NCBI GenBank assembly: GCA_032718475.1
Contig: JAUCBJ010008942.1
Span: 29,682 to 93,681, forward strand
Origin: Nemertoderma westbladi
Lineage: Eukaryota; Animalia; Xenacoelomorpha
DNA length: 64,000 nucleotides
Direction: 5' to 3'
Position 1 is the first letter of the stretch, and the number at the start of each line of letters is the position of its first letter. The position numbers and the translations under genes are program-made. The notes below the pieces were generated by a model. That model had not been told where the DNA came from, did no database searches, and saw only the letters and a list, made by a program, of their open reading frames with translations. Positions 17,949 through 56,503 of this stretch are shown in pieces.

Positions 17949-18019
17949 TCTGTTAGGAGACTGAGGAGGAGTCTTGGCAACCTGTTCTCTCCTATCGTTG
18001 GTTCGAGCCTTGTATTTAC

Positions 18020-21000
18020 TTACGCTTTTTGAGGTTTTGTTAACGTAGTAAAATCGGTCAGTGTCTTTCCCGCTGTCCTCTTCTTGAGAAGCTTGCTTTC
18101 GCCTTCGTCAGTGTAACACACTGGTGTTACTCTTCTCCTAGAAACGGGTTTCTCACTTACCTTATTTTCCGATGTTTTCTCTCTGGACTGCTTGATGAGT
18201 TGTAGTTTTACTTCACCATCTAAGAAGGACATGAGATCAGCCATGGTAGGGCTTCGTCGTTGCTGCTCATTCATATACAACACTTTCTTGTCCCAGCGTG
18301 TACATACTCCACCCTTTGGTAAAGTAGAGACTACGGCTCCAATAACCATGGAACTCTGATATTCATGAGACTTACCTAACCAGTCCAATAGTCTACAGAT
18401 CTCCTGAATCTCATCGGAAAACTCTATAATCCCGCTACTAAGGAAGTTTCGGGGGGCTACTAATTTTGCATACAAATACTTAGCTATGTTATCCTTGTTA
18501 CCATACCTGGTGTTTAATGTATCCCAAACTTGTCTTAATCCATCTGGATGTCCAATAAACTTTAACGCCATTAACTTGGGAGGTCCTTCCAAGCACTTGA
18601 TGAGGAATCTAAGTTTCTCTCCGTTAGATAGTACAGAGTTCTGTATGCATCTTTGTAATATTCATTGAAAGGTAACCATTTCATCTCATCTCCATTGAAT
18701 TTGACGATCTCTCCCACTTTGACCGCTTGGCGGGCTTCTGTTCTAGCCATCTGACGCGTAAAGCTTTCTTGGGCCATCGTGTTATTTAATATCGAATTAT
18801 CGGTATATGAATTTCTCGGATTATTATCAGGTCTATAGGGAATATCATTAACAACAGGTTTATAATCACCCTTAATAGGGTTTGCTATAGGAGTTTCTAC
18901 TTCACTAGCAGTATAGATGCGTGTAGGCTCCACACCTTGCGCATGTGATACTTCAGACCTAACAGGTTGACACAATGTTACTGGGGGTATTGGTATACCC
19001 TTTTGTATATTGACTAATTTGTCGCGTTCTAGCGCGATGCTTTGCTGCACTTCTTGCAATTCTAACCTACTTTCCCTTACTGTTCCCTTAAGTTGGTGGA
19101 CAGTCTCCTGCATCTGTCCGAGCAGGAGATTCATCCCCCGCCGTCCCTCCTCTACCCACTCAACCGCCGAAGCGGGAGTCGCCAACATTGTAGCGGGCCG
19201 ACGCAGGACGACGGGAGACAAATCTTTGATTTCTCTCTCAGTGTCCAGGACAGGGATATTCGCATGGACTGTTCTACCGGGTACAGGCAGTGTGGTACTG
19301 TGTAGAGGGAATTTAGAGTTAAGCTCTGGAAGTACAGGGGTCTCTAGCACAGGAGTGGCTTTGGGAACGACAGGCCTAATTATTTCAGGCTCATCAACTA
19401 TCATAGGGAGTCTTAATAATTTGGTCTGTGGGTTCTGTACTACCTAAGTCTGTGCTAGCTAGTTGTCTTCTAACCGCTGGGGGCAAATCAGGCAATTTGT
19501 GACGGTGAGATGTTTTTCTACGCCTGCTTAGACGAGATCTATTTCCTCCGCCTTCAGGATCAGTGGTCTCGCCTTCCTCCGATGATGTGTATCCTTGGCG
19601 TTTGGGAGTAGATCGACTCATCATCTGCATTTGACTAGCAGTTAACTGTTTATTTATGCAGTCTTGCGTCTCTTGCAGATTTTCCAACTCCAGTTGGGTA
19701 GTCTCCTCAGACGCTCTTCGTTCTGCTTCTGCCACTGCCTTTGCCGCCTTTCTTTCCGCTTCTGCTTCTGCCATTGCCGCTGCTGCCTTTCTTTCCGCTG
19801 CCGCTTTTGCCGCTTCCGCTTCTGCCATTGCTGCTGCTACTGCTGCTGCCTTTCGGTCCTCTATCCGTTTTTTCTTTACTTGTTCTTCCTGGACTCTAGC
19901 GAGGCGGAGTTTTTCATCAAATTTAGCTTGGTTTGCAGCTAACCTTTCTGCATCGATTGAGTCCAACACAAGCTTGGCTCCTTCACTATTGGGGCGAAGT
20001 CCAGCCAGTCGTCTCCTCAACTCTTCATCACCTAGGAAACGTTGATAGTCTGACAGATAGATGTCTATGGCGTCTCTCGTTCGCGGTCTCTTTGCGGTCA
20101 CTTCGCTTTCCACTTGAGAAAAGGTGGCATCGGTTGATTCTTCATAGGTTGGTCTCTCAGCCAGCTGGGATTTCCACTGGGCCGTTTCTTGTACTTTGAG
20201 ACCTACCCGCTGGAACCAAGTCTTGACAGCAACTTGCAGCGACGTGTCCTGTCTTCTTTTGGAAGTTTCCTCAAAGGCTGATAGGATTAGTCTAATGCGT
20301 AGGGTTCTTTCGCGTACTTGATATAGCAGCTCTTTCTGCTCTTGAGGTCCTTGGGGTTGTTGAAACAGTTGTTCTTCTAATCGCTCTAAGGAGCCGAAGA
20401 ATCCCTGCACATATCCTGCTGCCGACCTCTTCCAAACAGCTGGATCCATCGTATCTTTAGTCACTCCCATCCTGTGTATGTCTTCCCAAGTAGCTTCGGA
20501 CAAATCTAACGGGAGTCCGGGTCCGGGAAAGTTCCATTGTGACTCGACAATAGACATCAATTCTTCCCTGGCGTATCCCGCATAACTATCTTGGGTCGCT
20601 CGCTTACTTCTCGCCCAATCGCCTTGGTGTTCCACCACCGCAATCAATATAGTAGTTAGTACTGCGGCAGGAAGGGTGAGAAGGGGATCCGAATAGGCTG
20701 TAGCCGCCATCTTCACTCCGCGTTCGGGGGTCAGCTCTACAGTATCCGAACTACTGGAGCTATCGGGTCGCTGGGAACGAGTTTCTTGACTAGGATGTTG
20801 CTGCTGTTGGACAGCTGCCTCTTGGTTCCGTTTGACCTGGGCCCGAGTGCCGATGATAGACCTACGGTGTTGGATTAGCCTAGGGTCTGATACTACTACT
20901 GGAGGGATGACCTTTCTTTCAGTAGGAGGTGAGCTGAACCCCTTTCTTAATCGCTCCACACTCCTGTCTGTGTCACAGATGGTTGTATCGATTAGACTGT

Positions 21001-21028
21001 CTGACAGGTTTTGCTTTGTGTCAGACAT
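18020..21028 (-). pseudogene. gag: B1 gag with long N-terminal extension (frameshifted)
   Basis: ORFs 19394..21028, 18571..19404 and 18020..18592; KFNGDEMKW and WDTLNTRYG resemble BEL/Pao Gag; collinear with the B2 ORFs from 24654. Confidence 0.85.
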
Positions 21029-22149
21029 ACTTAGCTATACAGTTGAATGCTTGCTGCTATAGTTACAGTTAAAGCAAGTCTAGTAATTCAGTATGACCGT
21101 TGGCCTAGTACCGGTAATTTATTACAGTATATTAGAATACCGGTATACACTTATAATATATAGAAGTATTGTAAACTAGGTTTGTCACAGAGTACCGGTA
21201 TATAATTTTTGCACAAATATATATAAATATATAATAGGCCTATCGTGAATACCGGTATACAGCTGACACTTATAGTATATAAGTATAATTCTGGACTAGA
21301 ATAAATTACAGAATACCGGTATAATTTTAGCCTAAATTTATAGAAATAAAGATAATAGGCCTATCGTAAATACCGGTATATCAATTATTTAAATAATTGA
21401 ATTTCTGAATTTTAAAGGTTACTTAGTTACTTTAACTTACTTTATTACCGTTATTTAAGCAGTAGTCCAACTGATATTGAGACCTAGTTGTTGTATGGCA
21501 GGCCTACTATTTATAAATCGTTTGAGTTGATTTATAATATATATATACCCGTTTAAAATGGGTTTTGTCAATATTTGAAATAAATGTTATTATTTCCGGG
21601 GGGAGTCACTACACAGAAGCTGTGCGCTCTCAGTGAAGTGCTACTTAATAGACACTAAAACAGATAATTCTACTTTACCTAAGTTACTTAATACTTCAAA
21701 TTACGTACGATACGGGTGAGATTAATTCTCTAATTAAAACACAACAAAATATTACGTACGAAATTTTAGGGTAATTTTACAGGGAAACTACAAACCAGTC
21801 TAACAAAGGGTTAGAACTTCTGGTTATTACAACGGACAGGATACTACGGTATTTGAGAATAATAAAGCAGTAGTCAATATACTGCGTTGTCCAGATAGGA
21901 AAAATACCACCGTCTGACGACCTATAGCCGTATCGCTATAGGTACTACGTTATGTATCACGGAGTGTCCCTACCTGGAAGTTAATTACCGCAGACTACCA
22001 GATCCAACGTGCCTATTAACCACTTTACAACACAATACACTGCCTACACACTAATTACTTTCGGAAAGCACTGTACACCAAACCCTAAATTAGGTACAAG
22101 TACTTATTAAAACAGATAACTAGCAGTTAAATATACTTGAACAGTTAAA

Positions 22150-22630
22150 AGATTCCAAAATGGTTAGTTAGTATGCGTTCTAACACGGTAGTACGACTTA
22201 TTCTTTAGGAGGGGATTGACCTTACAGCTCTGGCTGCCCCAACTTACTAACTGGAACTTTATCAGACAAACTCTACACACGCAGCAATCTCTTCAGACCT
22301 AATAATAGCTAGACAACAATCCAGCCTACAAAAATATCTGAGTAATAACTATTACGGTACCTGAACAGACCACACAAACAAACACAGACTAAAACGCTGG
22401 CAGACTACTATCAAGCCTAAATTAACTACAGTATGTGCAGATTCCAAAATGGTTAGTTAGTATGCGTTCTAACACGGTAGTACGACTTATTCTTTAAGAG
22501 GGGATTGACCTTACAGCTCTGGCTGCCCCAACTTACTAACTGGCACTTTATCGGACAAACTCCACACACGCCGCAATCTCTCCAGACCCAACAACAGTCA
22601 GACAACAGTCCAGCCTACAATTATCTGAAC
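22150..22630. repeat. ~190-bp direct duplication in the B1 leader (offset ~289 bp)
   Basis: GATTCCAAAATGGTTAGTTAGTATGCG...CCAGCCTACAA at ~22151 and ~22440. Confidence 0.85.
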
Positions 22631-22801
22631 AATCTGAGCAGACTTACACGTCTTCAGCTCAATATTAACTTACATGTAAATAAAACCGACAGAAATAAGT
22701 AAAATCTCAATAAAAACCAGGGCTGCAGTCCCTGATTAAATACTAAGACCTACCGGTATACAATAATCAAAATCGAATAATACTAATGTACTTATACTGG
22801 A

Positions 22802-23004
22802 AGTACCGGTTAGGACAGTTGGGCCTACAGACCTACAGCAGTACCGGTTCAGGCAGTTAGGCCTACGGACCTACAGCAGTACCGGTTCTGGCAGTTGGGC
22901 CTACGGATCTACAGCAGTACCGGTTCTGGCAGTTGGGCCTACGGACCTACAGCAGTACCGGTTCTGGCAGTTGGGCCTACGGACCTACAGCAGTACCGGT
23001 TCAG
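22802..23004. repeat. 38-bp tandem repeat, ~5 copies, in the B1 leader just inside the PBS position
   Basis: Unit GGCAGTTGGGCCTACGGACCTACAGCAGTACCGGTTCT. Confidence 0.92.
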
Positions 23005-23056
23005 GTTTACCGGTCGACCGGTACTTTCAACTTTATTGCTTACTGCAATAAAGACA

Positions 23057-23067
23057 ATAACTGTTAT
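23057..23067 (-). promoter_or_regulatory. Non-tRNA primer-binding site of B1 (ATAACAGTTAT), complementary to its own LTR
   Basis: Directly abuts the 5' LTR, has no TGG, and is the exact 11-nt reverse complement of the LTR sense sequence at 23812-23822 (9270-9280 in the 3' LTR). Confidence 0.7.
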
Positions 23068-24248
23068 TGTACGCGCTTTTGAAGACCTTTAGCAGTTTAA
23101 CCTGCCAAAATTTATATGTCTTTTGGTTTATAAATAGACTTTAGTAAATGACAAATATTTAATACCAATAAACACAACATTAGCCGAAGCCAGCCTAGTG
23201 CGCGTCCATTCACCCGCTGGATATACCCGGGAGACTGGATTCGGAGGGCTTAGATTGTTATTGCAGTGTAAGCTTACTGTATTATTCGATTGATCGTTAA
23301 TAAATAATTTCTGACCAATATTATTCACTTTCGGGAAATATTAACAGTTCCTTTAGGACGTGGCGCTCTATCTAGGTAAACAGAGATATGACTTATGCTA
23401 AACACAACGGTAAGTCGGTAAGGCTTATGATTCACGTATGAGGCGCATTCTTTAGGAAATGCTTAGTTATCAGCCACAATCATGCACACTACCGGTACCA
23501 CACAATACTGCACACTAATCTGCCGACCGTCAATGAATTTTATCATATATAAAGAGAACAGCAATTGACTCATGTAGTGCCTATCAAATAGCATTAAACT
23601 CACTACAAACCACGATAATATAAGTCGCAATCGCTATATGTAACCTGTCTCTCTAACCTGTAGTGTATCAAGAAAATTGGGAAATTTGGGTTATTTATCG
23701 ATGTTCTCCAAGTAATAATATTCAACCAAACAACAGTAAAAACCATTAAGACGGTAGGTTAAGATATGATATGACAATGTACTGATAATGTAACAATGAT
23801 ATGATGTGCCGATAACAGTTATACGCTCTATAATCTAAGCCTACTAATGTTTCTTCTAAAGTCTGAAACGAATTGACTCCAGAGCCGGTGTTCTTGGCCT
23901 AGATAGAAACAACAAAACAGTATCAAGAAAAACAGTAAGACTGAACACTCCTAGCACGATCTGTAGAATATCTCCACATCGACAATAAAAATCGCCCTGA
24001 TTGGCTGTTAAGCTAAACAAAGAACCATGTGTCCAACGGCCGTTTCCATGCCAGCAACCAGCTGTTAGATGTCGTAATCTGAATCATCAAGGCTACACTG
24101 TGCTAGAGGATTTGACGCATTGCGGGTTTTGTGCCTTGCCATGTCCGCCAAAGCACACATATAGAAGAATGACTTTTATGTCCGTTAAAACACCTACAAC
24201 GGTACTTTGCGGGCAAGGGGACTGATTATATCCGCAAAAGCTTTTACA
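23068..24248 (-). repeat. 5' LTR of B1
   Basis: Direct repeat of 8526-9706, followed by TSD GTAAA. Confidence 0.95.
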
Positions 24249-24253
24249 GTAAA

Positions 24254-24445
24254 GACGAGGTCATACCAGATCTACTTCTCTGGCAACCAACTCATGGAAA
24301 GCGTAGTCGTGGACGACCTGCCATAACATATATAGATCAACTTGAAAGGGATACTGAACTTGGGAGAAACGAAATTGCGACAACTATGGAGAATCGGGAA
24401 GCCTGGAAGGATCTCATTTCCACTGTCCGAGTTCGCTCGACCTAG
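24254..24445 (+). pseudogene. LINE ORF, C-terminal part (RGRP motif), stop codon merging into the (TAG)n tail
   Basis: Manual translation DEVIPDLLLWQPTHGKRSRGRPAITYIDQLERDTELGRNEIATTMENREAWKDLISTVRVRST*, in frame with 8525 once the TSD is removed. Confidence 0.9.
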
Positions 24446-24653
24446 TAGTAGTAGTAGTAGTAGTTACTGATCCTAGTCTGTAATAATACTGATATATACT
24501 CTAGGTGTATACCGGTATTCTAATATTAAGATATATACTACATTACATTGAGTAGTGATATAGGTAACTACTAGGCTGACAGTTGATACTGATTTCCCCT
24601 AGACTTGCTTTAACTGTTATTATAGTAGTAGGCATTCAACTGTAAAATAAATT

Positions 24654-35282: not shown

Positions 35283-35868
35283 TGTTAGCGGATTCAATTC
35301 CGCTAACCACCCCATAAAGTTGGGAAACGGCACCTTTAAGCAATATTGGGGAATACGAGATTGATTACCAATCAACCTCGTATCACCCCCAATAAATGTG
35401 GACAACAAACCCCAAAGGGCCGCACACAAAGGGAGGTCAGAGGTTAAACCTCCGGGAGGGGAAAGTAACAGCAGTGGTGGGGGGAAACAATCCCACAGAG
35501 TCGAGGGCGAGAATTAGGTTATTGGCCAATGGGAGCCAAGAAACGCATCCACTGGGTACAATGGCCATAGGTAATGTAGATATATAATATTACCGGTTAG
35601 TGCCCAACATTCAGTTTACGCAGTCATCAGGTGCAGTACGGTGACATTTCGCACCGTCACCGTCACTACAGTACAAACAACATATTGTATTTACCGGTAC
35701 TCAGTTATCTCATTATATCACCATTCAATTATCTATCAACTGTGCTGTGATATCTATGTGTCAACCTATAACAACTCGAACGATAACAACTACCATATTT
35801 TCTTCTTCTCATCAACACGGTGATGCGTAGCGAAACAAAACCGGTCGGGATCCACTGATCCCGTCACA
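35283..35868 (+). repeat. 5' LTR of A2, with TATA-like TATATAA (35581) and Inr-like TCAGT (35611)
   Basis: TGTTAGCG...CCCGTCACA, repeated at 42202-42781; the CATTCAGTTTAC block is conserved in the A3 LTR about 20-30 nt after a TATAA. Confidence 0.9.
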
Positions 35869-35877
35869 GTGCGAAAT
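35869..35877 (+). promoter_or_regulatory. Non-tRNA primer-binding site of A2 (GTGCGAAAT), complementary to its own LTR
   Basis: Abuts the 5' LTR; reverse complement of ATTTCGCAC at 35646-35654. Confidence 0.72.
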
Positions 35878-35899
35878 ACCCAAACTGGAAACTGTGACT

Positions 35900-38800
35900 G
35901 CCAGACTCAAGTAGGACAGAGATAAGATGAGTCAAGAAAGAGAGACGACAAGTAGGACAGAGATAAGATGAGTCAAGAAAGAGAGACGACACCGCCACGG
36001 ACCCCGGACAATACGAACGAAACGATCCGCTAGGCCGCGACACGACGGTATCGACCCGCAACACTGGACTCGCCGGAGAGGAGCGAACCGGTAGCTCAGG
36101 CGGAGGGCGGCCGTCTACCACAATGAGGGACAAGCGAGTGGAGAGAAGGGATAGACGAGTCGACGCACGACGGCACACGAGGTACCGATGTCGCCGGCCA
36201 GCCACAGGTCGAGGGCGGCAGACGGCCCACAGGAACGGCGACGGTGGGGCCTCCGGTACGACGCCGAACACGGAGAGAAAGAGGAGAGGTCGGCGATGAG
36301 GACGTCGGAGTTAGCGACCGGCTCCGGCGGGCCTACAACGCGACGAGGAAGCAGATAAAGGAAGCTAAGGAGGGAGCAAAACTAGATCAGGTGAAGCTAG
36401 AGAAGCGGCTAGGTGAGTCGAATAGACATCTTAACTATCTAGTCCGCTATGGACAAGGAGAGTTGGCGGGTGGAAGAGCGAGAGGGGTTGCCACCGAACT
36501 GTTCGAACTGTGGCAGTCTAGGGGTATTGAGCCTGGTGTAGTGTACATAGGGCCGTACTTAGTGGATGCCAGGGGAAATAAGTTAGTGAGTTGGGCGGGA
36601 CCGCGGGAGGGTGAATCCGAGGTTAACCCCGAGGATTCGGTCTCGCCGGTCGGCGAAAACCTCAGAAAGCAGGGGAAAGTTAGTAGGACGGGGAGGCGAC
36701 GGGAGTCCGTCGCGACCGACAAGTCTGCTAAATCCTCCGCAAAAGTAAGAAGGGTGCTAGAAATAGATCTGGCGTGCCAGTTGGATATCGTGTTGCTAGA
36801 CCAAAAGGAGTTAGAGAGGCAGTTGGAGGAAGGAGCTGCGTTGCTAGAGAGAGAGAGAGAGTTGGCGAGGGAGTGTAAAGAGAGAGCTGAGAGGGTAGCC
36901 AGGAACTGTAGGGAGCAAGAAGAGAGGGAGAAAAAGAAGCGCGAGGAGCGAGAAGGGAGGGAGAAAGAGGAGCGCAAGAGGGAGAAAGGGGAGCGAGAAG
37001 GGAGGGAGAAAGAGGAGCGTGAGAGGGAGAAAGAGGAGCGTGAGAGGGAGAAAGAGGAGCACAAAGAACGAGAAGCAAGAGAGGCAGCGAGGGTGGAGAG
37101 AGAAACAATTGAATGTAGAGAGCGGGTGGCGAGAGAAACAGAGTTAGCGAACCAGAGTTTGCGAGAGGATAGGGAGAGAGAGAGAACGGGGAAGCGTGTG
37201 CGGGATGATATGCACGCCTGGCTGAGGGGGCTTATGCAATATCAGGCCAAACAGAAGCGCCGACTAGAACTGGCACAGTTGGGGCTGTCAGAAAGTGAGG
37301 CTGGCTCGGGTAGTGTTTATGAGGAGCCAGAAGTTATGGAAACGTTTGTTAATACTCCACTTGCAGGGACCGGACGACAGACCCAAGACTGGTGTAACCG
37401 TACGGGCGGGGGGTAATAACAATACTTTAGAGAACGTTAATATTAATAGTACCGTAGTAGATAACCCTAATCAAACTTTCATTGCAGGAAATAATATTTT
37501 GCCCGATAGTAGTAATTTAAATCCGAACGATTTTAATATAAATGTACAAAGTAGTCCAAATAATTTAAATAATAATATATAATTACGCAAAATAATTCAA
37601 ATAATATAATTACGCAAAATAATTCAAATAATAATCTTAATTCGAACGAACAGAATAATCCCGTTTCAAATTCAAATAATTCTAATAATTTAAATAATTT
37701 AGAAAATAGAGTTGGTAATGGTGCTATTAATATAAACGTGGCGGATGCAGGTGGCCCGGCAAATGAGAACCTGGTAGGCCACGTAGTCAGTAGGCAGGGA
37801 GTAACGGGGGTGAGAAACCACAATGAGAGCCTGGTAGGCCACGTAATCAGTAGGCAGGAGGTGGCGGGGGTGAGAAACCCCAGTGAAAGCCTGGTAGGCC
37901 ACGTAGTTAGTGCGCAGGGAGTGGCGGGGTTGAGTCAACCCGACGTGGGCCTGTCAGGCCACACAGTGATAGAGGGAGAGGCGGGGGTGAGTAGACCCAG
38001 TGTAGTTAGTGCGTCGACTTGAGAGGGGTGTAGAGGCGAAGTGACAGATATTGAAGTGATATGTGGCGAGCGGGGGGGGGGGGGGGGGGCTACAGGAGCC
38101 CCACAACGAGAGATTAGCGGCGAGTGGGGGGGGGGGGCTACAGGGGCCCCACAATGAGAGATTAGCGGCGAGAGGGGGGGAGGGCAGAGAGTGTCCCGCA
38201 GGCGTCGGCGGATAATGCGCGGGGCGAATTAGGTGAACCGCAGCACCCGGCGATGGAGAATAGTAGGGGGATTACGAGTATCCCCAGCAGCGTGCGACCG
38301 AGTAGAGAGAGAGAGGTTAACGTCGCGAGAGGGCGAGCGACGAGACGCCGAGCCCAGTCAGAAGAGGGAAGAAGAACAGTGGAGTTTAACCGGGAGGTCG
38401 ACGAGAGATCTCACAAGCGGGGACACTGCACTGCAGAGAGAAGAAGGGAAGAGAGTAGAAGAAGTGTCGTCTCGAACGACAGAAGAGCAAAGACGGATAG
38501 CGAGACAGGGAGTACGGGCACCCGGCCAAGATCATCCGGCAGACCCTGAGAGGTATAACATTGGGTGGCCTGCAGGATAACCCCGTTAGCATAAAGACAT
38601 TGGCAAACAAAGTCGAGAAGGCACTAATCGTGTTGAAGACGTTAGACGCGCCATACAAACTCAACGCATCTAATAATATCACCACGATAGTGCCGGCACT
38701 GCCAATCTGGCTGCGCAGTAAGTGGAGAAAAATCGTTTTCTCCACCCGAGAGAAGAAGGGTGCGGAACCGGGCCTAGAGGAAATGTCGAACTTCCTCAAC

Positions 38801-40593
38801 TACGAAGCTGAGTTGATCACGGACCCAGTCTATAGCAAGGATAGTCTGGGAAAGGCGCCAAGGGCCGAATACAACAGGCCGAAACCAGAGCACAATGCGG
38901 CAAACGCATTACCAAAACTAAGACAATCCCTACCATACACGGCGACACAGGGGACAGCCAGTCCACGGATAGTTGGGAGTGGGGCCAGACCGTGGCATGA
39001 ACAGGGACAAAATAACAACACGAACAAACATAATCCCAAGACGCCCAGTAGGCCAAACCCAAATAACCAAAACACAAAATCGGTAGACGTGAACTTATGC
39101 GCAATATGCGTAGGGCTGTATAAGGAACGTTACAACCCGGGATACGAATGTCAATTGCATAAAGACGGAACCCATAAGACCATGGACTATAAGCATTGAC
39201 AGGCGTTACCCGAACAAGATCGGAAAGCCTATGCGGATAAGATTGCAGTCTGTCACCGATGCGTGGTAGGAGGACACAAGGTTGAAGAGTGTAAGGAGAC
39301 ACCAATTAAGTTCGGTCAAGGCAAAGGGCAGACAATGGCGACAAGCACCATAGGGGCAAAGAAGAGAGGAACAGTACTACTCGGGGTAGTACCAGTGAGG
39401 GTAATCGGGGAAGGCGATCGATCAGTAACCACACTGATGCTGGTCGACAGTGGAGCAGCCTTCACATTGGTCGAGAATTGGGTGGCCGAAGAGATAGGAT
39501 TGAAAACGAGACCAAGTAGAAGGGCGGTAACAACCATCTCCAGCAAAGATGAGGTCCTGGAGATGAGGACTGGACGGTGCGGGATAGCAGCGATAGCACC
39601 GGGATGCGATTATGGGGCGACGATCGACCCCATCCAGGTGATAGAGTCGATAAATATTAACGCCAGGCGACCAACCAACATCGAGGTCGAACAATATAGG
39701 TTCCTGGACAGTATCGACTTCTCGATACCAGAAGTGGACGTTAGGAAGGTATCCATTATAGTAGGAATGGACTGCCCGACCGCCAACGAGAGAATGCAGA
39801 CGGTCTTCGGGAAGACAAATAGCGTGACCCGGAGGCAATCTTAACACCATTCGGGTGGACGCTAAGTGGCCCAATCAAAACCAAGATACCATTTAGGATG
39901 TTGGAGATATCAGGGTGCATGTTCGCGGGAACTATGCGGGAGATGGAAGACGAAGGAGTGGAGGAGCAGCTCAGGAGACTGTTTAGACAGGATTTTGAGG
40001 GATTGAAAGAGAACGGGGTCGGAACCTCGGTAGAAGATAAGCAGGCTTTACAAAGCGTAAAGGAGTTGATGACATGCGACGAGGGGCGGTATACCATAGG
40101 CATGGTATGGAAACAACCAAAACTACCGTTACCCGACAACAAAGGAATGGTACTCACGAGGCTTCGTAAGTTAAAGCAAACGCTAAAACGGAGCCCCGAA
40201 AAGAATGAGTACATTCATAAGACGATTAGGAAGTATGTCGAGAAAGGATGGGCCGTGGAGTTACCGGTCGACGAACCGAACACGGACAGGACCTACTACC
40301 TACCACTTCACGTGGCTCTAGATCCGAAGAAAGGTAAACTACGGATGGTAGTTGACACATCAGCTAAGACCAACAGCAAATGCCTAAACGATTATCTGTT
40401 AGAGGGTCCCAATATCTACAACTCAGGGATCGAGGTCCTACTCAGATTCAGAAATTGGAAGCACGCCTTCACATGCGACATTGAAGGCATGTTCAACCAA
40501 GTCCGTGTTACGGAGGAGGATAGTGATGGCCAGCGCTTCCTATGGTACAACGGCGATGAGGAACCGTCGACAATAACAACACACAAAATATAA
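35900..40593 (+). pseudogene. gag-pol: A2 gag-protease-RT fragments
   Basis: Glu/Arg coiled coil (36244..37416), Asn-rich tract, 20-aa LVGHVVSRQ repeats, LPIWLRSKW Gag segment, CQLHKDGTH knuckle, LVDSGA protease, and YYLPLH / FTCDIEGMFNQV BEL-type RT truncated before YxDD. Confidence 0.85.
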
Positions 40594-40839
40594 AAAAAAA
40601 AAAAAAATTAATAAAATAAATAAAGAGAAAGAAAAAATAATAGTACGTAGTAGGTACGTAGTAAGTAAGTAGGCAGATAGAAGTTAGTAAGAGATAGTCA
40701 GTAAGAGGGTTTGTAGTACCGGTTAGTAAGGGTTAGTAGAAGTTAGTTAGGGTGTAAGTTGTGTAAGTGTAGTAGTTAATAAGAAGTTAGTAGTAGCAAG
40801 AAGTTAGTAAGTAGTAAGAAGTAAGAGGAAGTTAGTTAG

Positions 40840-41115
40840 AGATCAGGGAGTGTGGTATATAGACATACCACGGGAGTAAGAGGGTACATAGTACCGTTAG
40901 AGTAGAAGCACAGGGAGTGTGGTATAGAGACATGCCCAGGGAGTAAGAGGGTACGTAGTACCGTTAGAGTAGAAGCACAGGGAGTGTGGTATAGAGACAT
41001 ACCACGGGAGTAAGAGGGTACGTGGTACCGAGAGAGTTAGAGATTAAAAAAATCAGGGAGTGTGGTATAGAGACATACCACGGGAGTAACAGGGTACATA
41101 GTACCGTTAGAGGTA
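40840..41115 (+). repeat. ~66-76 bp tandem repeat, 4 copies, each with two short stem-loops
   Basis: Unit CAGGGAGTGTGGTATAGAGACATACCACGGGAGTAAGAGGGTACRTAGTACCG. Confidence 0.85.
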
Positions 41116-42201
41116 GAGAGTTAGTTTGAGTTAGTAGAATTAGTGAAGTTAATAGTTAGTAAGAAGTTAGCAAGAGAGTTACGTAGTAAGAAGTAAGTAG
41201 AGAGGTAAGTACAAAATGACAGCACAGAACAGGGGCAAATAGAGATAAAATAAAACAAAATTAAAATAAAATTAAGAATAATCAGGATCACCTCCGAACT
41301 ACAGAAGAGCATTCAAGGTGGCCTTCGAAGGTCTGGTAGACCACCCGGGGCTGAAGGGCGAGTCGGTGTAATACAACAGCCGGCATCTAGTAGACAGGGA
41401 GGTGGATACACATAACAAAGGTGGGAAAGTTGGAAGCGGATAGACTTGATGGGAAGCGACTGGAAGAAGTCACCAGGCGAGAAAGGCGGAGAGAGAGTAG
41501 TGAGTAATAGGAATGAAACGCGTTATGTAAACGAGCACATAATATAATATATATAATGAAAATAATTATAATCTTATAATAATTATATAATAATTTGTAT
41601 ATATATTATACAGTATGTACCCTAGTCAAGTACAGCCTTTCCAATTAGCTACTTACTGGGACTGGGGATTAATTGACTAGGGCAACAGGACGGGACTTGG
41701 ATGGCTCCCACTTACATGAGCGCTCATTTGTGGGGCCCGATAAGCATGCAAGGGATGAAAGCGAGAAGAGGAATCGGGGGGAAGAACAGAGAGCAGGTTT
41801 TTTTGACAGGATGAGGGAACGTGAGAGGAGTGTAATTCAAGTGTGGGGGGGGGGGAGGAGTAAGAGGCAGAGTGAGGGACAAGGGGGTCCGAGAGTTAGA
41901 GTGGAGGGAAAACTAGAATCAGTTAGAACGGAGTTAGAGTGGAGAGAGTGTTGGGAAACAAAAATTGTGTGAGAGAAACCCACAATTGGCCCGACACGGG
42001 ACATCAGATGTCTTGGTGAAAGATAGATAAAGTTGCACCAAGAGAGGGTAGCGATATCATGCCCATAGGGAGCAGCCGGGAAAGCCGGCTCCGAGAAAAA
42101 TAACTCCACCCCACACCCGATAGTAGATCGGATTCCAGCGGAATTGAAGCACACTTGAGGTGGATGCTATCTTCTCACCGGGAAGATAGCATGGGGGGGA
42201 G

Positions 42202-42781
42202 TGTTAGCGGATTCAATTCCGCTAACCACCCCATAAAGTTGGGAAACGGCACCTTTAAGCAATATTGGGGAATACGAGATTGATTACCAATCAACCTCGT
42301 ATCACCCCCAATAAACGGGGACGACAAACCCCAAAGGGCCGCACACAAAGGGAGGTCAGAGGTTAAACCTCCGGGAGGGGAAAGTAACAGCAGTGGGGGG
42401 GGGGGAAACAATCCCACAGAGTCGAGGGCGAGAATTAGGTTATTGGCCAATGGGAGCCAAGAAACGCATCCGCTGGGTACAATGGCCATAGGTAATGTAG
42501 ATATATAATATTACCGGTTAGTGCCCAACATTCAGTTTACTCAGTCATCAGGTGCAGTACGGTGACATTCCGCACCGTCACCGTCACTACAGTACAAACA
42601 ACATATTGTATTTACCGGTACTCAGTTATCTCATTATATCACCATTCAATTATCTATCAACTGTGCTGTGATATTATGTTATAACAACTCGAACGATAAC
42701 AACCACCATCTTTACTTCTTCTCATCAACACGGTGACGCGTAGCGAAACAAAACCAGTCTGGATCCACTGATCCCGTCACA
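42202..42781 (+). repeat. 3' LTR of A2
   Basis: Direct repeat of 35283-35868 with scattered differences. Confidence 0.92.
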
Positions 42782-46666: not shown

Positions 46667-46827
46667 ATATATAGAGCACTATTTTGTAGTATATTGCATG
46701 TACAGATGTAGGTATAAAGCAGGTATTTTAGGTATTTTAGTACCGGTACCGGCACCGGTACTGCTGTGTAGGCCTACTGTGTAGCCTACCATTTAAATAC
46801 GGTACTGGTAGGCCTACCGGCTGACCG

Positions 46828-47850
46828 GTTGTTTTGGTTAGAAAATCCTGCCTCTGTAACCTGCTCCTTTCCCTGATTTGGTAAAGTTACCGTTTATTGT
46901 TTTGGTTAGAAAGGCCCGCCTCTGTAACCTGCTCCTTTCCTTCATTTAGTAAAATGACTGTTTATTGTTTTAGTTAGAAAATCCCGCCTCTGTAACCAGC
47001 CCCTTTCCCTCAATTAGTTGAATTATCGTTTATTGTTTTGGTTAGAAAGTCCCGTCTCTGTAACCTGCTCCTTTCCCTGATTTGGTAAAGTGACCGTTTA
47101 TTGTTTTGGTTAGAAAGGCCCGCCTCTGTAACCTGCTCCTTTCCTTCATTTAGTAAAGTGACTGTGTATTGTTTTGGTTACAAAATCCCGCCTCCGTATC
47201 CTGCCCCTTTCCCTCAATTAGTTAAATGATCGTTTATTGTTTTGGTAAGAAAATTCCGCCTCTGTAACCTGCCCCTTTCCTTCAATTAGTTAAGTGATCG
47301 TTTATTGTTTTGGTTAGAAAATCCCGCCTCTGTAACCTGCTCCTTTCCCTCAATTAGTTAAGTGATCGTTTATTGTTTTGGTTAGAAAATCCCGCCTCTG
47401 TAACCTGCTCCTTTCCCTCAATTAGTTAAGTGATCGTTTATTGTTTTGGTTAGAAATTATCGTCTGTGTAACCTGCTCCTTTCCCTGATTTGGTAAAGTG
47501 ACTGTTTATTGTTTTGGTTAGAATAACCCGCCTATGTAACCTGCTCCTTTATCTCAATTGGTAATGTTATCGTTTATTGTTTTGGTTAGAAAATCCCGTC
47601 TCTGTAACCTGCTCTTTTCCCTGATTTGGTAAAGTGACTGCTTATTGTTTTGCTTATTGTTTCGCCTATGTAACCCGCTCCTTTTCCTCAATTAGTTAAA
47701 TGATCGTTTATTGTTTTGGTTAGAAAGGCCCGCCTCTGTAACCTGCTCCTTTCCTTCATTTGGTAAAGTGACTGTTTATTGTTTTGGTTAGAAAATCCGG
47801 CCTTAACCTGCTCCTTTCCATCAATTGGTAATTGTTTTTGGCTATAAAAT
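46828..47850. repeat. 68-bp minisatellite, ~15 copies
   Basis: Unit TTATTGTTTTGGTTAGAAAATCCCGCCTCTGTAACCTGCTCCTTTCCCTCAATTAGTTAAGTGATCGT; period 68 measured at 47341/47409; ~7 further copies at 57836-58320. Confidence 0.92.
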
Positions 47851-50829
47851 GAGTGTTTTGCTACGTCATGTGGTAATCGATTATCGACAACAACCACAAA
47901 CTACAGTATTAAATTTAGAGTCTATTACCACAGGCGCATATGGAAATCTATCTCATAGTCTATAAATCATGGAATCATGGAATGTTTTGGCACAGGCATA
48001 GTGAAACCAACTGTCTGACAGTCCAGAAATTAGCAGTCTGACAGTTTGAAGAAATACATACATAAAAAGTCATTAAAAGGACAACAAAACTCATTAAAGG
48101 GGCAACAAAAGTCATTATGCAGAATTCGTAAAAAAAGCTAGATAAAAAAAGTCAAATAAAAGGACATAAAAAATCACTGCCTAACATAAATAACTAGGCC
48201 CTATACGCATAAATATATTATCTCTTAGACCCTCTTGATCTCTAGTAGTGGACCAATTTAAATGGACCTGTGGTAGTCCTGTAACCATGGTCACAAGTCA
48301 CTAAATATATTCTGCCAAATTTAATAGACGTAATATCTAAAAAAAGTTCCATTCTGGATCTAGTGTCTTACATGTTGCCAAGTACGGATAATTAATTCCG
48401 ACCATTCAAGTTTGCCTCTGTTGCCAAGGCAACCGATAATATTTGGAATGTGGACAACTTGACAACAATATGAACACTGCAGTATATAGAAACATATTAT
48501 GGACAAAAATTTTAAAATTTATTTATGTTTACTTACTATACTTATCATTGTTCTATTTTTGAGTTACCATGACAACCGCTGAAAACAGATGTTTTTATAC
48601 AAAAATAACTCATTTGGACATAGACTTCCCGATAAGATTTTATGAAACTAGTTATGTGTTTTCTGGACCACTAGTTGGAACTTTTAGTGAAACTCAAAGC
48701 ATTCCCGAAATATCTAATTACCATGGTTACTGTAGTTTAATAAAGTCTATATCATTCAATCTATATTCATAACTCTATTTGTTGCAAAACTGCAATATAT
48801 AGAAACTTAGGGTTTTTCAACTCAATGATAAGGGCAATAGTCGAGCCGATTGAGGTTAATTAGAAAATCCAGTTACCAGGGCAACCAGGCTAAACAGACG
48901 TTTAAATTTATAAAATGATTATTTAAACCATAACATTACGACTTGGTACCAACCCGTTCCCCCACTATATCACTTATTCTCCATCTGAATTACATTGTTC
49001 TATTTCTCAGTTTCCATGACAACCACAGCAAACAGACGATTTAAGAAATTCCACGAAGCTAAGGAAAATCAACTACTTTCGCTAAGAAAGATTTTTCTTA
49101 GCTGAGATGGTCTATTCATAGTGGGCTATTTTACTTGTGTGAGGCAGATTTGGGGTTTTTTAACTCCAGAAAAATCTAGCATTTAAGAGTACCATGAAAT
49201 TTAGCATGTATATACTACTCGTCGAGGCGCATCTTTTGAGATGGGTCTCATATCCAGGAAAAATCTAGTTTCCATGGCAACGGACTTAGAATATAGTCTA
49301 TGTATTTAAGTCAATATTTATAACTCTATTTGGAGGAAAACTATAATAGATATAAACTTGGGGTTTCTCAACACAACTATAAGGTCCATAGCAGAGCCCA
49401 TTGAGGTTAAATAGAAAATCCGGTTACCTTGGCAACCGGGATAAACAGATGTTAAAATTGATCAAATGTTAATTTGAAGACAAAGGACAAGGTGTTATGA
49501 CTTGGGACCAACCCCTACCCCCACTATATAACTTATTCTGCGTCCAAATTTCATTGTTCTATTTTGCAGTTACCATGACAACCGCTGAAAACAGATGTTT
49601 TTATACAAAAATTACTCATTTGGACATAGACTTCGCGATAAAATTTTACGAAACTGGGTATGTGTTATCTGGACCACTCGTTGTAACTTTTAGTGAAACT
49701 CAAAACATTCCAGAAATATCTAGTTACCGTGGTGTCTGGAGTTTATTAAAGTCTATATCATACAAGTCTAAATTCATAACTCTATTTGTAGAAAAACCGC
49801 AATAGATGTGACGGGATCTGCGGATCCCGGTTTATCCGTTGGGTTTTCTATCCACGCGTCCCCGCCGTGTGTGAAAGGTAAAAGAGTTCTGATGTTGGGT
49901 AATATGTATAAAGGTATAATAGTCTGATAGTTGATATAGTATAGTATGACACAACAGGTAATATATAATGGCGGTAGCGGACGGTGACAGAAGTCCCCGT
50001 TCCACCCTACTGATCTGACTGAGTAAACTGAATGAATGATTACAGGTTACTGGTTATATTGCACGGTGGCCTTATTGCTACTCAATCGATGCCTTTCCCC
50101 CCTCTGATTGGTTGATACCCTTGTTGGCACCCCGTGGAGTGTTCCCGTTCACTCCTCCTGTTCTCTCTGGGTTAGGGGTTTGGCCCCTGACCCCTATTGT
50201 GTGTGTCTCCTTTGGGGCCTATTGTCCCCGTTTACTGGGCTGACACGAGGTTGATTGGTAATCAACCTCGTGCTCCCAATATTGCTTTATGGCTCACTCT
50301 ATGGGTTTGTGTTAGCGGAATTGGATAAGCTAACACTCCCCCCCATGCTATCTTCCCGGTGAGAAGATAGCATCCAACTCAAGTGCGCTACAATTCCGCT
50401 GGATCCCGATCTAGCATCGGGTGTGGGGTGGGTATATTTTTTCGGAGTCGGCTTTCCAGGCCGCTCCCTATGGCTATGATGTCACTACCCTCTGGCGTCT
50501 CGTGTCGGGCCGATCGTGCGCTTCTCTCACACAATTTTTGTTTCCCCAACACTCTCACCACTCTACTCCAACTCTCGCATACTCCCGGACCTCCTCGTCC
50601 CACACTCTTCCTCTCACTTCTCCTCCCCCACACTTGAATTGCGCCCACGCTCTCTTCGCACTCCGCACTATTACTCCATCCCTCCTTGACTACCTTATCC
50701 CTTCTGACGAATCTCACCCCCCCTCCGTGCCGTCGCACTCAGGAAATGTGAAATCGTCTGGCGTCTTGTCCCTAGTGCCATAGTCACTTAGCCCCCCAGT
50801 CCCAGTAGCTAATTGAGAAAGGTTGTATG

Positions 50830-52700
50830 ACTATAGTACTTACACCACTCTCTCCGCACCCCGCACTATCACCTCTCCACTCTCTTGTCACTCCCTAAGG
50901 CTTTAATCTCTAATGCTACCCCTGTGCTATCATACTATCTACCTACTGCTTACTAACTCTAACTATCTAACTAACTCTACTAACTACTAACTCTACTCTC
51001 CGCTAACTCTCACTACTTCTGGCTCTAACTAAAGCCTCTAACTTTCTACTAACTCTAACTAGAACTACTAAGTCTAGCTAACTCCTACTAACTCTCTACT
51101 TCTACTAACTCTACTTGACTCCTCTGAGTCTACCAACTCTGCTAACTAGCTCTACTAACTCTACTCCACTAGCTCTGCTAATTCTACTCCACTAGCTCTG
51201 CTAACTCTACTCCACTCTTCTAACTACGTGGCGCCTGCGGTGCCCACAACCACTCTACTATATGGCACCCTATGTGCCCTTCTACTACTCAACTACCTCT
51301 CTAGCTCTACTACCTGGCACCCTATGTGCCCTCTCTGCTCTACTCTACTACCTGGTACCCTATGTGCCCTCTCTACTACACTACTACCTCTCTAACTCTA
51401 CTACCTGGCACCCTATGTGCCCTCTCTACTACTCTACTCTATCTCTAACTCTCTAACTCTACTACCTGGCACCCTATGTGCCCTTCTACTATTCTACTCT
51501 CTGGCACCCTATGTGCCCTCTCTGCTACCTCTAACACTCTACTCTACTACCTGGCACCCTATGTGCCCTCTCTACTCTTCTACTACCTGGCACCCAATGT
51601 GCCCGTCTCTACTCCTCTACTCCCCCTTTACGTCTCATCGCCTACACGTGACGCTCTGAGTGCCGGCAGAGTGGGTACGTTAATTATGTGAACTACTACT
51701 GACTCTACTAACTCTCTTCTAACTCTACTAACTCCTTTTGTGCCCGGCACCTCTTGTGCCCGGCACCTCTTGTGCCCGGCACCTTCTAACTCTACTAACT
51801 CTCTACTAACTCAACTAACTCTACTACTAACTCAACTAACTCTACTACTAACTCCTTTTGTGCCCGGCACCTCTTGTGCCCGGCACCCACCCTAATTAAC
51901 ATACCCTGCTCTTACATCAAACACATCATCACGCCCGTGCCCCACTAAGTTCAGCGCATTCCCTACTAACTCTAACTACGTGGCGCTTACGGTGCCCACA
52001 ACCCTCTACTGCTACTACTAACACCCCTAACTAGCGGTACTACGTACCCTCTTACTACTCCTAGCTCTCTCTACTAGCTAGCGGTACAACGTACCCTCTT
52101 ACTACTCTAGCTCTCTCTACTAGCTAGTGGTACTACGTACCCTCTTACTCTTACTAACTCTCTAACGGTACTACGTACCCCTTAACTCCTACTCTCTAGC
52201 GGTACTACGTACCCTCTAACTCTAACTCTAGGTACTACGTACCTACTAACTTTCTAACTCTAGGCACTACGTACCTACTAACTAACTAACTTTAGGTACT
52301 ACGTACCTACTAACTCTCTAACTCTAGGCACTACGTACCTACTAACTAACTAACTCTAGGTACTACGTACCTACTAACTAACTAACTTTAGGTACTACGT
52401 ACCTACTAACTCTCTAACTCTAGGCACTACGTACCTACTAACTAACTAACTCTAGGTACTACGTACCTACTAACTCTCTAACTCTAGGTACTACGTACCT
52501 ACTAACTAACTAACTCTAGGTACTACATACCTACTAACTCTAATTCTAACTAGCGGTACTTACATACCCTCTAACTCTCTTCTACTAACGGTACTACACG
52601 TACCCTCCTACTAACTCTTCTACTAACGGTACTACACGTACCCTCCTTTAACTAACTAACTAACTAACTAACTACCTAACTTCTACCTACTCTATTATTT
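50830..52700 (-). repeat. Low-complexity 3' region of A3 with stem-loop arrays
   Basis: 8x GGCACCCTATGTGCC (51263-51605), 5x GTGCCCGGCAC (51740-51890) and ~18x GGTACTACGTACC (52036-52645, 32-bp period over 52231-52550), all in CTA/CTAA-rich spacers. Confidence 0.88.
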
Positions 52701-52712
52701 AATTATTTTTAA

Positions 52713-55700
52713 TTAAATAATTATTTTATATTTTGTGCGTGGGAAGGGCGTCTCGCCCTCATTCCCACCCCCCTCAGTCCAAAACTTTGGACGACTAAAA
52801 ACTCTCACGTGCCCCTTCTTCCAGTAGGCACTCTCCTGCTGCCCTCCTATACGTCCTCTAACTCTTCGCCACACTCTCTTCGGTGCTACCTTTGCTGGCC
52901 TTCCCCTTCGTATGTGCGCTGGCATTAAGGCCCTCGACGACCCCCGCTCGTCCCTCGGTATACGCGGTGTCTGCCCGTGCAATGCCCCCTCGCACTGTGT
53001 CCGTCCTGCGTGTGTATGCGACACGCCTCCTTCTACTTTCCCGACTCCCTTATGTTTGCTAATGGGCTTCTCTGCCCCTGGTTTAGTCCTTTCATATCCT
53101 TTCCCTTTCCAACACTCTCCGGATCTGTGTCCTTTTACCACACATCGATGACATAGTCCGTTTGCGTCTGTGTAGGCTACACGATCTCGTTTGGGCAACG
53201 CTTGCCAGTACTTGCAACTCCTGGTCTTATGGGTTCCGTCCCGATGTAATTGACATTGGAATCCTGGATTATAGCGCTTCCTGTATAGTCCTTCACGTAT
53301 CGCGCTTAGGTTTATATGTACCGATTTAATGTTTTGGTTGTCTAGACTCGGCCTACTGGGTATATTGGGATTGTTTTTATTTACGGTGTTATTTTCTTTC
53401 TGTCCCTGCCACGGTGTGGCCCTACTACCAGGTAACTGTGGACTGGTAGTCCCCTGTATGGCCGCGTGTGGTGGTGACTGTCCGCATGACCTGCTCTCGT
53501 CCAAGGGGTTCGATGTTCTCGCTCCTATTGGGGTATATTGTCGATATTGTGATGGGGGAATGTCACCCTGTCCCCCCCCGGCCGGTATGTTTGGTACTGG
53601 GGTTGATGTTAATACATTGGGGCCCATACGTCTATCTCCAATAACTCCCCCCTCCCCTGGATATATGTTATGTCCCTGTGTATTATAGTCATGCTGCTGT
53701 ACCAATATAGGCCTACCTACCTCTCGCCTACCTACCGGTATGTACTCCGCGACTTCCGGGTTTAATCCCGTCGTTCGCGCTACCCTATCGCCTACTCTAT
53801 CTCTCCCAGCATGGCCTATAATAGTATGTGCAGTAAGGCCTACAGTATGTCCTGCAGTCTGCATGTGCCCTTCCGAACCGAAGTTTATTCTTCGCGAATC
53901 TCGAATCTCCCCGCGACTACTGCACTCTCGATCGACAGCTATATCCCGTCGGGAAGCTTCTCTCCGATCCCCTCTCCTGTCTCGACTCTGTATTGGTACG
54001 TCTTGTACCCCTCTCTTGGCGTGCGGTGCGTTTCTCCGGGGCGACGGCAATCTCCCGAAGTTCGACCCCACTGGCTCCCTGACTCCATCTCTACTATCGA
54101 CGGTCCGTTATCCGTCCTCGCACTCCTATCGTTCGTGGCGACACCTCTTCTACTATCTTCTCTTCTTCTCTTTTCTGTGTAGTATTCCGGCTCATGAGAT
54201 CTCTCGTCGACCTCCCGGTTGAACTCCACTGTTCTTCTTCTCTCTTCTGATCGGGCTCGACGCTTCATCTGCCCTCTCGCGACGTCAACCTGCCTCTCTC
54301 TGCTCGATCGCACGCCGCCGGGGATACTCGCAATCCCCCTATTACTCTCCGTCGCCGGGTGTTGCGGTTTACCTGATTCGGCCCGCGCATTATCCGCTGA
54401 CGGCTGTGGGACACTCTCTGCCCCCCCTCTCTCGCTACTAATCCCTCGCGGTGGGGTGCCCGTAGCCCCCCCCCCCCCACCCGCCACTTCTAACTTCACT
54501 ATTTCTTACTACACTTCTATACCCCTCTTGTGGGGCATTCTCTGCCCCCCCTCTCTCGCCACTAATCTTATGTGGTGGGGCGCCAGCAGCCCCCCCCCCC
54601 CCCCACTCGCCACATCTAACTTCACTATCTCTCACTTCGTCTCTACACCCCTCTCTAGTCGACGCACTGTCTCTACTACGGCTGGGTCTATTCACCCCCG
54701 CCTCTCTCTCTACTACTGCGTGGCCCATCAGGCCCACCTTGGGTTGGCTCAACCCCGCTACCTCCTGCCTACCAACTACGTGGCCTACCAGGCCGCCGTC
54801 GGGTTGGCTCAACCCTGCCACTTCCTGCCTACTAACTACGTGGCCTACCAGGCCCTCGTCTGCTGAGTTATGTACGTCCGACACGCTCATATTAATAGCA
54901 CCATTCCCAATATTATTTGTTAAATCAATTAAATTATCAGAATTTGAAACGAGATTTAAATTATTTAAATTAGAATTATTTGAATTTTCAAAATTTAAAT
55001 TATTATTCGTACCATCCGAATCATTCTGAATATTTGAACTAATGTTATTATTTGAATTTAAACTTAAATTACTACCACCGGGTAAAATATTATTTCCTGT
55101 AATAAAGGGATTAGGGTTATTTACTACGGTACTATTAATATTATCTACTTCTAACGTACTATTATTACCCCCCCCCGCCCGTACGGCTACACCAGTTCTG
55201 GTTCTCTCGCCCGGTGCCTGTAAGTGGGGGCTCACTCTCTGATATCTCCAACCGCGCCAGTTCTAGTCGGCGCCGTTTAAGTTTGGCCCGATATTGCGCA
55301 AGCAGCGCCAGTCGGACAAGCAAAAGATCTCGCTCACGCTCTTGCTTTAACTCTCTCTCTCTGCACACTCGGAACTCTCTCGCAAGCATCCCAGGCTGCC
55401 TCGCCGGCTCGCTCTCTATTCTCCCCATCATTATCCCGATATGCTCCCGATCTCTATGCTCCTCGGCCCTCTCTCTATCCTCCCTTACCAACTCTAATAA
55501 TGCGGTTTGCTCTCTCAATTGCCCCTCTAACTGTTTCCGCTCTGCCGCCGCCTTTTCTAATTTATACGCCACGCGTTCACTCTCTCGCACCCGTCTTTCT
55601 TTTGCGGAGGATGTAGCAGACTTATCGGTTGCGACGGACTCCCGTCGCCCCTCCGTCCTACTAACTTTCCCCCGCTTCCCGGAACTTCCTCCGACCGACG

Positions 55701-56469: not shown

Positions 56470-56494
56470 TGTCAGGGCAGCTGGGCGGATCTGA

Positions 56495-56503
56495 TTCTGT
56501 CAC
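56495..56503 (-). promoter_or_regulatory. Non-tRNA primer-binding site of A3 (GTGACAGAA), complementary to its own LTR
   Basis: Abuts the 5' LTR (starts at 56504); the LTR sense strand has TTCTGTCAC at 56681-56689. Confidence 0.72.

Follow-up and report, generated by a model that had tools for sequence, protein, structure and literature searches.

LTR retrotransposons in the window

The window analysed here is a stretch of 64,000 nucleotides (nt) from Nemertoderma westbladi (contig JAUCBJ010008942.1 of assembly GCA_032718475.1, positions 29,682 to 93,681), and all coordinates below are window positions. It is animal DNA packed with nested retrotransposons of the long terminal repeat (LTR) kind; the subject of this report is the priming of reverse transcription in two families of these elements, called A and B. 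In three elements, A2, A3 and B1, the leader, which follows the 5' LTR, begins with a perfect complement of a segment inside the element's own LTR. Such an arrangement suggests that the RNA of the element may be its own primer.

Element A2 (35283-42781, + strand) has a 5' LTR at 35283-35868 and a 3' LTR at 42202-42781, 96.1% identical to one another, and is flanked by the target site duplication (TSD) CGCAT. Its polypurine tract (PPT) is GGGGGGAG. Element A3 (49807-57032, - strand) has its 5' LTR at 57032-56504 and its 3' LTR at 50335-49807, each of 529 bp and 100% identical, with the TSD TCTAT. Element B1 (8526-24248, - strand) has LTRs of 1181 bp at 24248-23068 and 9706-8526 that are 99.2% identical, the TSD TTTAC and the PPT GGGAGCGG. 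LTRs with TG...CA ends, a 5-bp target duplication and a PPT identify these as LTR retrotransposons. Two other copies are truncated at the 5' end. B2 (+ strand), a BEL/Pao-type element with Peptidase_A17 and DUF1759 domains, is the host of the A2 insertion. A1 (- strand), which is nested in a B-like fragment, has neither a 5' LTR nor a primer-binding site (PBS), and its only useful part is the 3' LTR at 1705-2320.

Coding content was used to place the two families. B1 carries Peptidase_A17, Integrase_H2C2 and DUF5641 domains, a CCHC knuckle, a DSGS protease motif and a YMDD motif, and its Pao-type gag-pol domains follow the order protease, reverse transcriptase (RT), RNase H and integrase. The pol domains found in B1 and B2 jointly are Peptidase_A17, DUF5641, Integrase_H2C2 and DUF1759, which are Pao-type and not the chromovirus-type pol of the Tf1/sushi clade of Ty3/gypsy. 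Searched against viral_contigs and genome_contigs, the pol protein of B1 gave no relatives. The coding remains of A2 are a CCHC knuckle, a DSGA protease (Asp_protease_2) and an RT fragment that matches the B1 RT at 55/139 positions (40%, E 1e-26). A3 has a CCHC knuckle; no protease or RT motif was found in it. Pfam recognised only Asp_protease_2 in the family A proteins, and in the ESM Atlas ORF1 (open reading frame 1) of family A gave no usable match and a 464-aa ORF gave weak zinc-knuckle leads only. These coding remains mark family A as non-autonomous and derived from BEL/Pao elements.

The LTR complement at the primer-binding site

In A2, A3 and B1 the leader's very first base is also the first base of the perfect complement of an LTR-internal segment, the core. 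The 9-nt A2 core ATTTCGCAC (35646-35654) pairs with the PBS GTGCGAAAT at 35869-35877, the 9-nt A3 core TTCTGTCAC (56689-56681) with the PBS GTGACAGAA at 56503-56495, and the 11-nt B1 core ATAACTGTTAT (23822-23812), which is followed by CGG, with the PBS ATAACAGTTAT at 23067-23057. Pairing between the PBS copies of two B1 RNAs is also possible, with 10/11 bases matched. When each LTR was shuffled 5000 times with its dinucleotide composition kept, only 7 (A2), 6 (A3) and 9 (B1) shuffles matched the core lengths, and none of the 169 other leader offsets in each element reached the core length. A sequence-only reading of this DNA had aligned A2 LTR 35610-35654 with leader 35869-35910 and B1 23868-23857 with 23035-23025, and all of the strings that it quoted are at these places; its 14/19 matches between the A3 LTR and the reverse-complemented leader were also found when counted by eye. 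The core complement is stronger than the wording of that reading suggests.

The cores of A2 and A3 differ at 4/9 positions and the PBS compensates at 4/4 of these. Cognate core:PBS duplexes have calculated energies of -10.8 and -11.9 kcal/mol, compared with -4.1 and -2.0 kcal/mol when the A2 and A3 partners are swapped. The core in the 3' LTR of A2, ATTCCGCAC, shows a single T>C difference, which may be a first step of core drift. A spliced primer need not be invoked, since each core is uninterrupted in the DNA.

The junction between primer and new DNA in A2 is set at 35868|35869 by the TSDs and the LTR ends. No tRNA-type PBS lies beside the 5' LTR in A2, A3 or B1: the LTR edge lacks TGG, the first TGG being at leader offset 18 in A2 and 55 in A3, with none in 100 nt in B1. 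The 18-nt complement of tRNA-Arg or tRNA-Gly described for BEL/Pao elements was not found at this place, and the site directly after U5 matches the element's own LTR transcript instead. There is no tRNA gene in the window and no Rfam match in the region.

The geometry fits self-priming. The base directly after U5 pairs with the last base of the core, and a cut at 35654|35655 would therefore yield a primer whose extension gives the observed LTR end. The cores of A1 (- strand; TCTTATTAC, 1938-1930), A2 and A3 all end in AC and are followed by CGTC, so that the context AC|CGTC of the predicted cut is conserved. Tf1-like self-priming from an internal cut at AC|CGTC is the best reading of this sequence arrangement.

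The putative transcript start and the outer helix

Motifs in the A2 LTR suggest a core promoter at 35581-35615 (+ strand), made up of TATATAA at 35581-35587 and an initiator (Inr) TCAGT at 35611-35615, whose A at 35613 would be position +1. Inspection by eye of the A1, A2 and A3 LTRs showed a TATA motif at -29 to -32 of TCA(G/C)T, so the spacing is conserved; the A of the A3 Inr is at 56726. With this A of TCAGT as the predicted transcription start, the core would occupy +34 to +42 in A2 and +38 to +46 in A3, and the capped primer would be 42 nt long in A2 and 46 nt in A3.

Beyond the core, the first 33-37 nt past the TATA/TCAGT motif form an imperfect outer helix of 23-25 bp with the leader just after the PBS. 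In A2 the R arm at 35613-35645 (+1 to +33) pairs imperfectly with the leader arm at 35878-35915, and in A3 (- strand) the leader arm reaches to ~56455. The helix is present in both the minimum free energy and the centroid folds of the A2 and A3 5' regions. A 41-bp tandem duplication lies in the A2 leader just past this arm (35911-35992).

The extension was tested by alignment score and duplex energy, core excluded, against 1000 mononucleotide shuffles with arms of 35, 45 and 60 nt. The observed alignment score was reached by 20, 1 and 14 shuffles for A2 and by 9, 25 and 28 for A3, and the observed energy by 2, 2 and 14 and by 1, 2 and 22, respectively. As a control with natural sequence, windows from the body of each element were paired with its R arm; 6/625 paired as well as the leader in A2, 1/608 in A3 and 346/1325 in B1. 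The claim of the sequence-only reading that the complement extends beyond the core better than shuffled controls thus holds for A2 and A3 and fails for B1, which is at chance level. The same division applies to its claim that the complement reaches the inferred transcription start. When the R arms of A2 and A3 were lengthened by 20 nt upstream of the Inr A, the gain was no greater than with shuffles (363/500 and 173/500), so the non-random complement ends at TCAGT in both elements. The TATA-like box 29-32 nt upstream of that motif in A1, A2 and A3 gives the putative start site indirect support.

The extension had also been read as the fading record of a process in which the PBS is rewritten from R in each cycle. 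Such rewriting explains the perfect, co-varying core but does not fit the extension. In its full form the whole 40-55 nt 5' fragment would prime and be copied through, the leader would be rewritten from R and the extension would be a decaying record of this. It is consistent with the leader arms of A2 and A3 being far more diverged (18/43 identical) than the R arms (27/37 identical) while each still pairs with R, and with the complement ending at the putative 5' end of the RNA, as a copy of a full-length primer would. However, the perfect pairing has a sharp edge, with mismatches at 0/29 core positions summed over A2, A3 and B1 and at ~30% of the extension, where bulges and unequal internal loops occur even in A3, whose LTRs are identical. 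No gradient runs away from the core. The A2 extension in fact pairs best far from it, the leader being the partner of 14 of the first 16 transcript positions in the fold, as against 6 of the next 17 on the core side. The arms of A2 and A3 also cross-pair as well as the cognate arms do, the A2 R arm giving -28.0 kcal/mol with the A3 leader and -24.4 kcal/mol with its own, and 5/6 transition differences between R and the reverse-complemented leader are G-U wobbles, which points to selection at the RNA level (counts by eye, and small). The outer helix therefore looks like a conserved RNA structure, and full rewriting is improbable, though rare rewriting of the extension may take place.

The simplest alternative to an internal cut is a terminal primer like that of Tf1. 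The transcript would then start at core base 1, a primer of 9-11 nt would be copied in its entirety, and the complement upstream would belong to U3 and have some other role, for example in pairing the 5' and 3' ends of the genomic RNA. The sharp edge of the perfect pairing would be explained without extra assumptions, and the available text on Tf2 describes alternative start sites in the LTR that decide priming competence (PMC5341516). However, none of A1, A2 and A3 has a TATA or conserved Inr-like motif suitably spaced from the start of the core. The TATA-TCA(G/C)T pair, whose spacing is conserved, is found 34-38 nt upstream of the core, and it is at the TCAGT motif that the non-random complement stops. 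A terminal primer is an unlikely reading of these elements.

The U5 box and a predicted switch

The folds of the family A elements contain a second partner for the core. The core together with the next 9-10 nt pairs with a segment of U5 that lies 33-61 nt before the LTR end, at homologous places. In A2 (+ strand) a U5 arm at 35817-35826 is the predicted partner of the R segment CGTCACCGT that follows the cut (35655-35663), and the adjoining U5 box GTAGCGAAA (35827-35835), a look-alike of the PBS with a one-base bulge, pairs with the core. The corresponding boxes on the - strand are GTGGATAGAA in A3 (56552-56543) and ATAAATAAGA, cognate to the A1 core, in A1 (1754-1745). When the core plus 10 nt was compared with U5 in four A LTRs, 0, 0, 0 and 2 of 1000 shuffles were as good. 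No U5 box was found in B1 (124 and 92 of 1000 shuffles as good). Between the box and the LTR end lies a 6-bp U5 hairpin, GGGATC-CACT-GATCCC (35847-35862), which is 6 nt before the LTR end and conserved in A1, A2 and A3.

A matrix of all cores against all boxes was best on the diagonal for 3/3 A lineages (-7.5, -7.8 and -5.2 kcal/mol, off-diagonal values being -0.4 to -4.4 kcal/mol). The U5 box co-varies with the core in A1, A2 and A3, and it is predicted to be the partner of the core before cleavage. In a thermodynamic model of the intact RNA the probability of core:box pairing was 0.68 in A2 and 0.86 in A3 and that of core:PBS pairing 0.18 and 0.12. When the RNA was split at the predicted cut, core:box pairing fell to 0.01 and 0.05 and core:PBS pairing rose to 0.34 and 0.93. 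With core:PBS pairing enforced, the R strand passed directly from the core:PBS helix into the helix of post-cut R with U5, which places the predicted cut at the junction of the two helices in the model.

A conserved outer helix and a conserved R:U5 helix need no priming role, and the core:PBS duplex is not favoured in the uncleaved ensemble. The whole arrangement could thus be a long-range structure of the 5' untranslated region for packaging, dimerisation or translation control, with some host RNA as the real primer. However, three elements from two lineages have the start of the perfect complement precisely at the base that follows U5. The PBS also differs between A2 and A3 at 4/9 positions, so that no single host RNA fits both, and TGG is absent from the LTR edge. 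A purely structural role is decidedly unlikely.

Family A in other DNA of the organism and the surroundings of the elements

DNA runs of the organism contain family A in very high abundance, with summed word depth in the tens of thousands over conserved LTR blocks. In Logan DNA contigs the depth is 18-21-fold lower at 35871-35898 than at 35843-35870, a drop at 35870/35871 to which solo LTRs contribute. Among the variants listed for the PBS, which are unphased, G>A at 35871 (position 3) accounts for 474.8/1088.7 of the depth in run X1 and 1458.3/2204.8 in run X2, and C>A at 35872 (position 4) for 454.4/1061.7 and 572.9/2154.8. The third main variant letter in the contigs is A>T at 35878 (position 10). 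These unphased PBS letters fit those given by the A1 core, for which the predicted PBS is GTAATAAGA, and by the A3 PBS.

In the DNA contigs, no part of the A superfamily is as abundant and conserved as a hairpin with 19-nt arms near the 5' end of the LTR (35348-35388; summed depth 30,000-54,000). In run X6, from another organism and guessed to be RNA, only a 35-nt conserved LTR piece from this hairpin region was found. The U5-end motif, used to scan metagenomes, matched 2 loci; both are GC-rich bacterial coding DNA and were rejected as copies of the family.

A2 and A3 are identical over the 22 bases before the 3' LTR, PPT included (42180-42201 and 50336-50357), although their LTRs are only ~75% alike, and a 32-bp tandem array lies in the 3' non-coding part of A3 (52126-52603). 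A3 is inserted in the first copy of a 3.24-kb unit present in tandem (47365-49806 plus 57032-57835, followed by 57836-61074; 99.3-99.7% identical), which contains 68-bp tandem arrays (46753-47800 and 57768-58271). The unit also contains a pair of direct repeats of 256 bp, 1006 bp apart (48545-48800 and 49551-49807), which may be a small terminal-repeat element. B1 and the truncated B2 are head to head, B2 homology beginning ~236 bp past the edge of the B1 5' LTR (24249-24485). A third B-like fragment surrounds A1, its flanks at 1677-1704 and 4471-5166 being contiguous in B1 coordinates, and the truncation point of A1 is inside the gag-like ORF, within a GAAGCG repeat (window 1677-5166). The window also contains a cadherin ORF (61338-62900) and an ORF of a long interspersed nuclear element with endonuclease and RT domains (5832-8540).

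Discussion

The balance of evidence tips towards the 9 bases after the LTR in A2 and A3, and the 11 in B1, serving self-primed reverse transcription of the Tf1 type, in which the element's own RNA folds back and is cut after ...AC and the new 3' end primes the minus strand. The transcript would start at TCAGT and its 5' part would fold back through the outer helix, which would hold the primer on the template. The core would lie on the U5 box before cleavage and on the PBS after it. The cut after AC, at the junction of the core:PBS and R:U5 helices, would be made by the RNase H of an RT supplied in trans, because A2 and A3 have no complete pol. The resulting fragment of 42-46 nt would prime minus-strand DNA at 35869, and plus-strand synthesis would copy only the 3' core of the primer into the PBS, so that a change in the R core would spread to the PBS and the match would be kept without selection. 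The imperfect match of the U5 box fits a box that follows the core only by ordinary compensatory change.

A more detailed version must be regarded as tentative and, on present evidence, doubtful. It states that these BEL/Pao-type elements use a capped primer of 42-46 nt from their own RNA, the core of which is parked on the U5 look-alike, cut at the junction of two helices and handed to the PBS. If this were true, a cleavage-triggered RNA switch would operate here, the primer and the PBS would drift together and a very abundant non-autonomous family would have been freed from the host tRNA.

The cut itself might have another origin. The 3' end of the core could coincide with the poly(A) cleavage site and hence with the R/U5 border, with the 3' end of the primer made by host cleavage machinery and not by RNase H. 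Poly(A) cleavage after CA is common, and the cut here follows CA-C. However, the 42-46 nt before the cut hold no hexamer resembling a poly(A) signal and no GU-rich stretch follows it. An R region that ended at the cut would also leave the strong-stop DNA with nothing in common with the 3' end of the RNA for strand transfer, and a poly(A) tail would block priming. This origin of the primer end is highly unlikely. Chance complementarity can be set aside as negligible: the cores are short and that of B1 is a near-palindrome in AT-rich DNA, but three independent matches at ~0.001-0.002 each, the homologous places of the A2 and A3 cores and a third co-varying partner in U5 all speak against it.

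Several observations weigh against self-priming from an internal cut as described above. One is that, if the whole 42-46 nt fragment primed, copying should run to its 5' end, and nothing seen explains why the match is perfect over ~9 nt only. The PBS of 9 nt is short, and the window holds few copies that bear a PBS, namely two complete A elements and one B element. The predicted cut site rests on geometry and conservation and the putative start on motifs. A search of A2 past the cut gave no canonical poly(A) signal that would mark how far R, as needed for strand transfer, continues there. In B1 the extension is at chance for arms of 35, 45 and 60 nt, with 624, 390 and 611 of 1000 shuffles reaching the alignment score and 127, 276 and 398 the energy; its start motif, TCAGA, is not above chance, and its PBS (23057-23067) and R core (23812-23822) are each near-palindromes (ATAAC-N-GTTAT). 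The fold z-scores of the 5' regions are modest (-2.32 and -1.71). The uncleaved ensemble favours the U5 box over the PBS as partner of the core, and even after the cut core:PBS pairing in A2 reaches only 0.34. Finally, no autonomous partner of family A was found in the window.

The primer of Tf1 is the extreme 5' end of the mRNA, its first 11 nt. In contrast to this terminal primer, the core here is at +34 to +46 of the transcript predicted from the motifs, and the 23-25 bp outer helix and the co-varying mimic in U5 come in addition. The elements here are of BEL/Pao type, unlike the Tf1 chromoviruses, and family A is non-autonomous. The following comparisons refer to the available text of the sources cited. 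Self-priming is established for Tf1 and Tf2, with a primer from the LTR transcript and RT-mediated cleavage (PMC5341516, PMC4600332), and has been proposed for Tj1, the sushi group, Tcn1 and plant TAR elements (PMC5341516, PMC4600332, PMC6317226, PMC5006619, PMC6934838). In Tf1 and Tf2 of S. pombe and Tj1 of S. japonicus, all Ty3/gypsy elements, the PBS after the LTR complements the element's own LTR transcript, as it does here (PMC5341516, PMC4600332). Their RT/RNase H frees the primer, which is copied back into the PBS, and an RNA structure near U5 is required (PMC5341516, PMC4600332); the corresponding steps in the present elements are predicted. The vertebrate sushi group, the Tcn1 clade and plant TAR (Ty1/copia) have no tRNA PBS and a PBS that complements their own LTR, as inferred from sequence (PMC6317226). 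They belong to other superfamilies, and an internal primer, a helix reaching the start or a U5 mimic is not mentioned for them in the available text (PMC6317226).

In the accessible part of the profile by the International Committee on Taxonomy of Viruses, the Belpaoviridae have a PBS of 18 nt that complements tRNA-Arg or tRNA-Gly and are primed by a host tRNA (PMC8742986). The elements here resemble them in the Pao-type pol and gag domains of B1 and B2, the A2 RT fragment that is 40% identical to that of B1, the LTRs, the 5-bp TSDs and the PPT. They differ from the Belpaoviridae of this profile in that A2, A3 and B1 are without a tRNA-type PBS (PMC8742986). No title or abstract on self-priming in BEL/Pao elements was found in the literature searched, which did not cover subscription papers, and PBS, primer and tRNA are not mentioned by de la Chaux and Wagner (2011). 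What is particular to the present elements is the combination of an internal core, an outer helix reaching to the putative start, a co-varying look-alike in U5 and a non-autonomous family of high abundance.

In retroviruses the PBS is copied from the primer during plus-strand synthesis and so follows it, and second contacts between U5 and the primer are known from the primer activation signal of HIV-1, the U5-IR stem and the boxes of Ty1. The PBS here would likewise follow its primer, with a proposed second contact in U5. Unlike the retroviral case, the primer would be RNA of the element itself, so that both partners can drift together, and the PBS has a rival in the U5 box, which claims the same bases of the primer.

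In animals, BEL/Pao elements rank among the most common retroelements, and descriptions of them name tRNA as the primer. If the present reading is true, a self-primed lineage with an internal primer would extend the range of such priming beyond Tf1 and the sushi group, and it would account for the failure of tRNA-based PBS annotation on elements of this kind. Because core, PBS and U5 box co-vary as three partners, the model lends itself to direct tests, and the family would then be a natural system in which a primer and its binding site co-evolve automatically.

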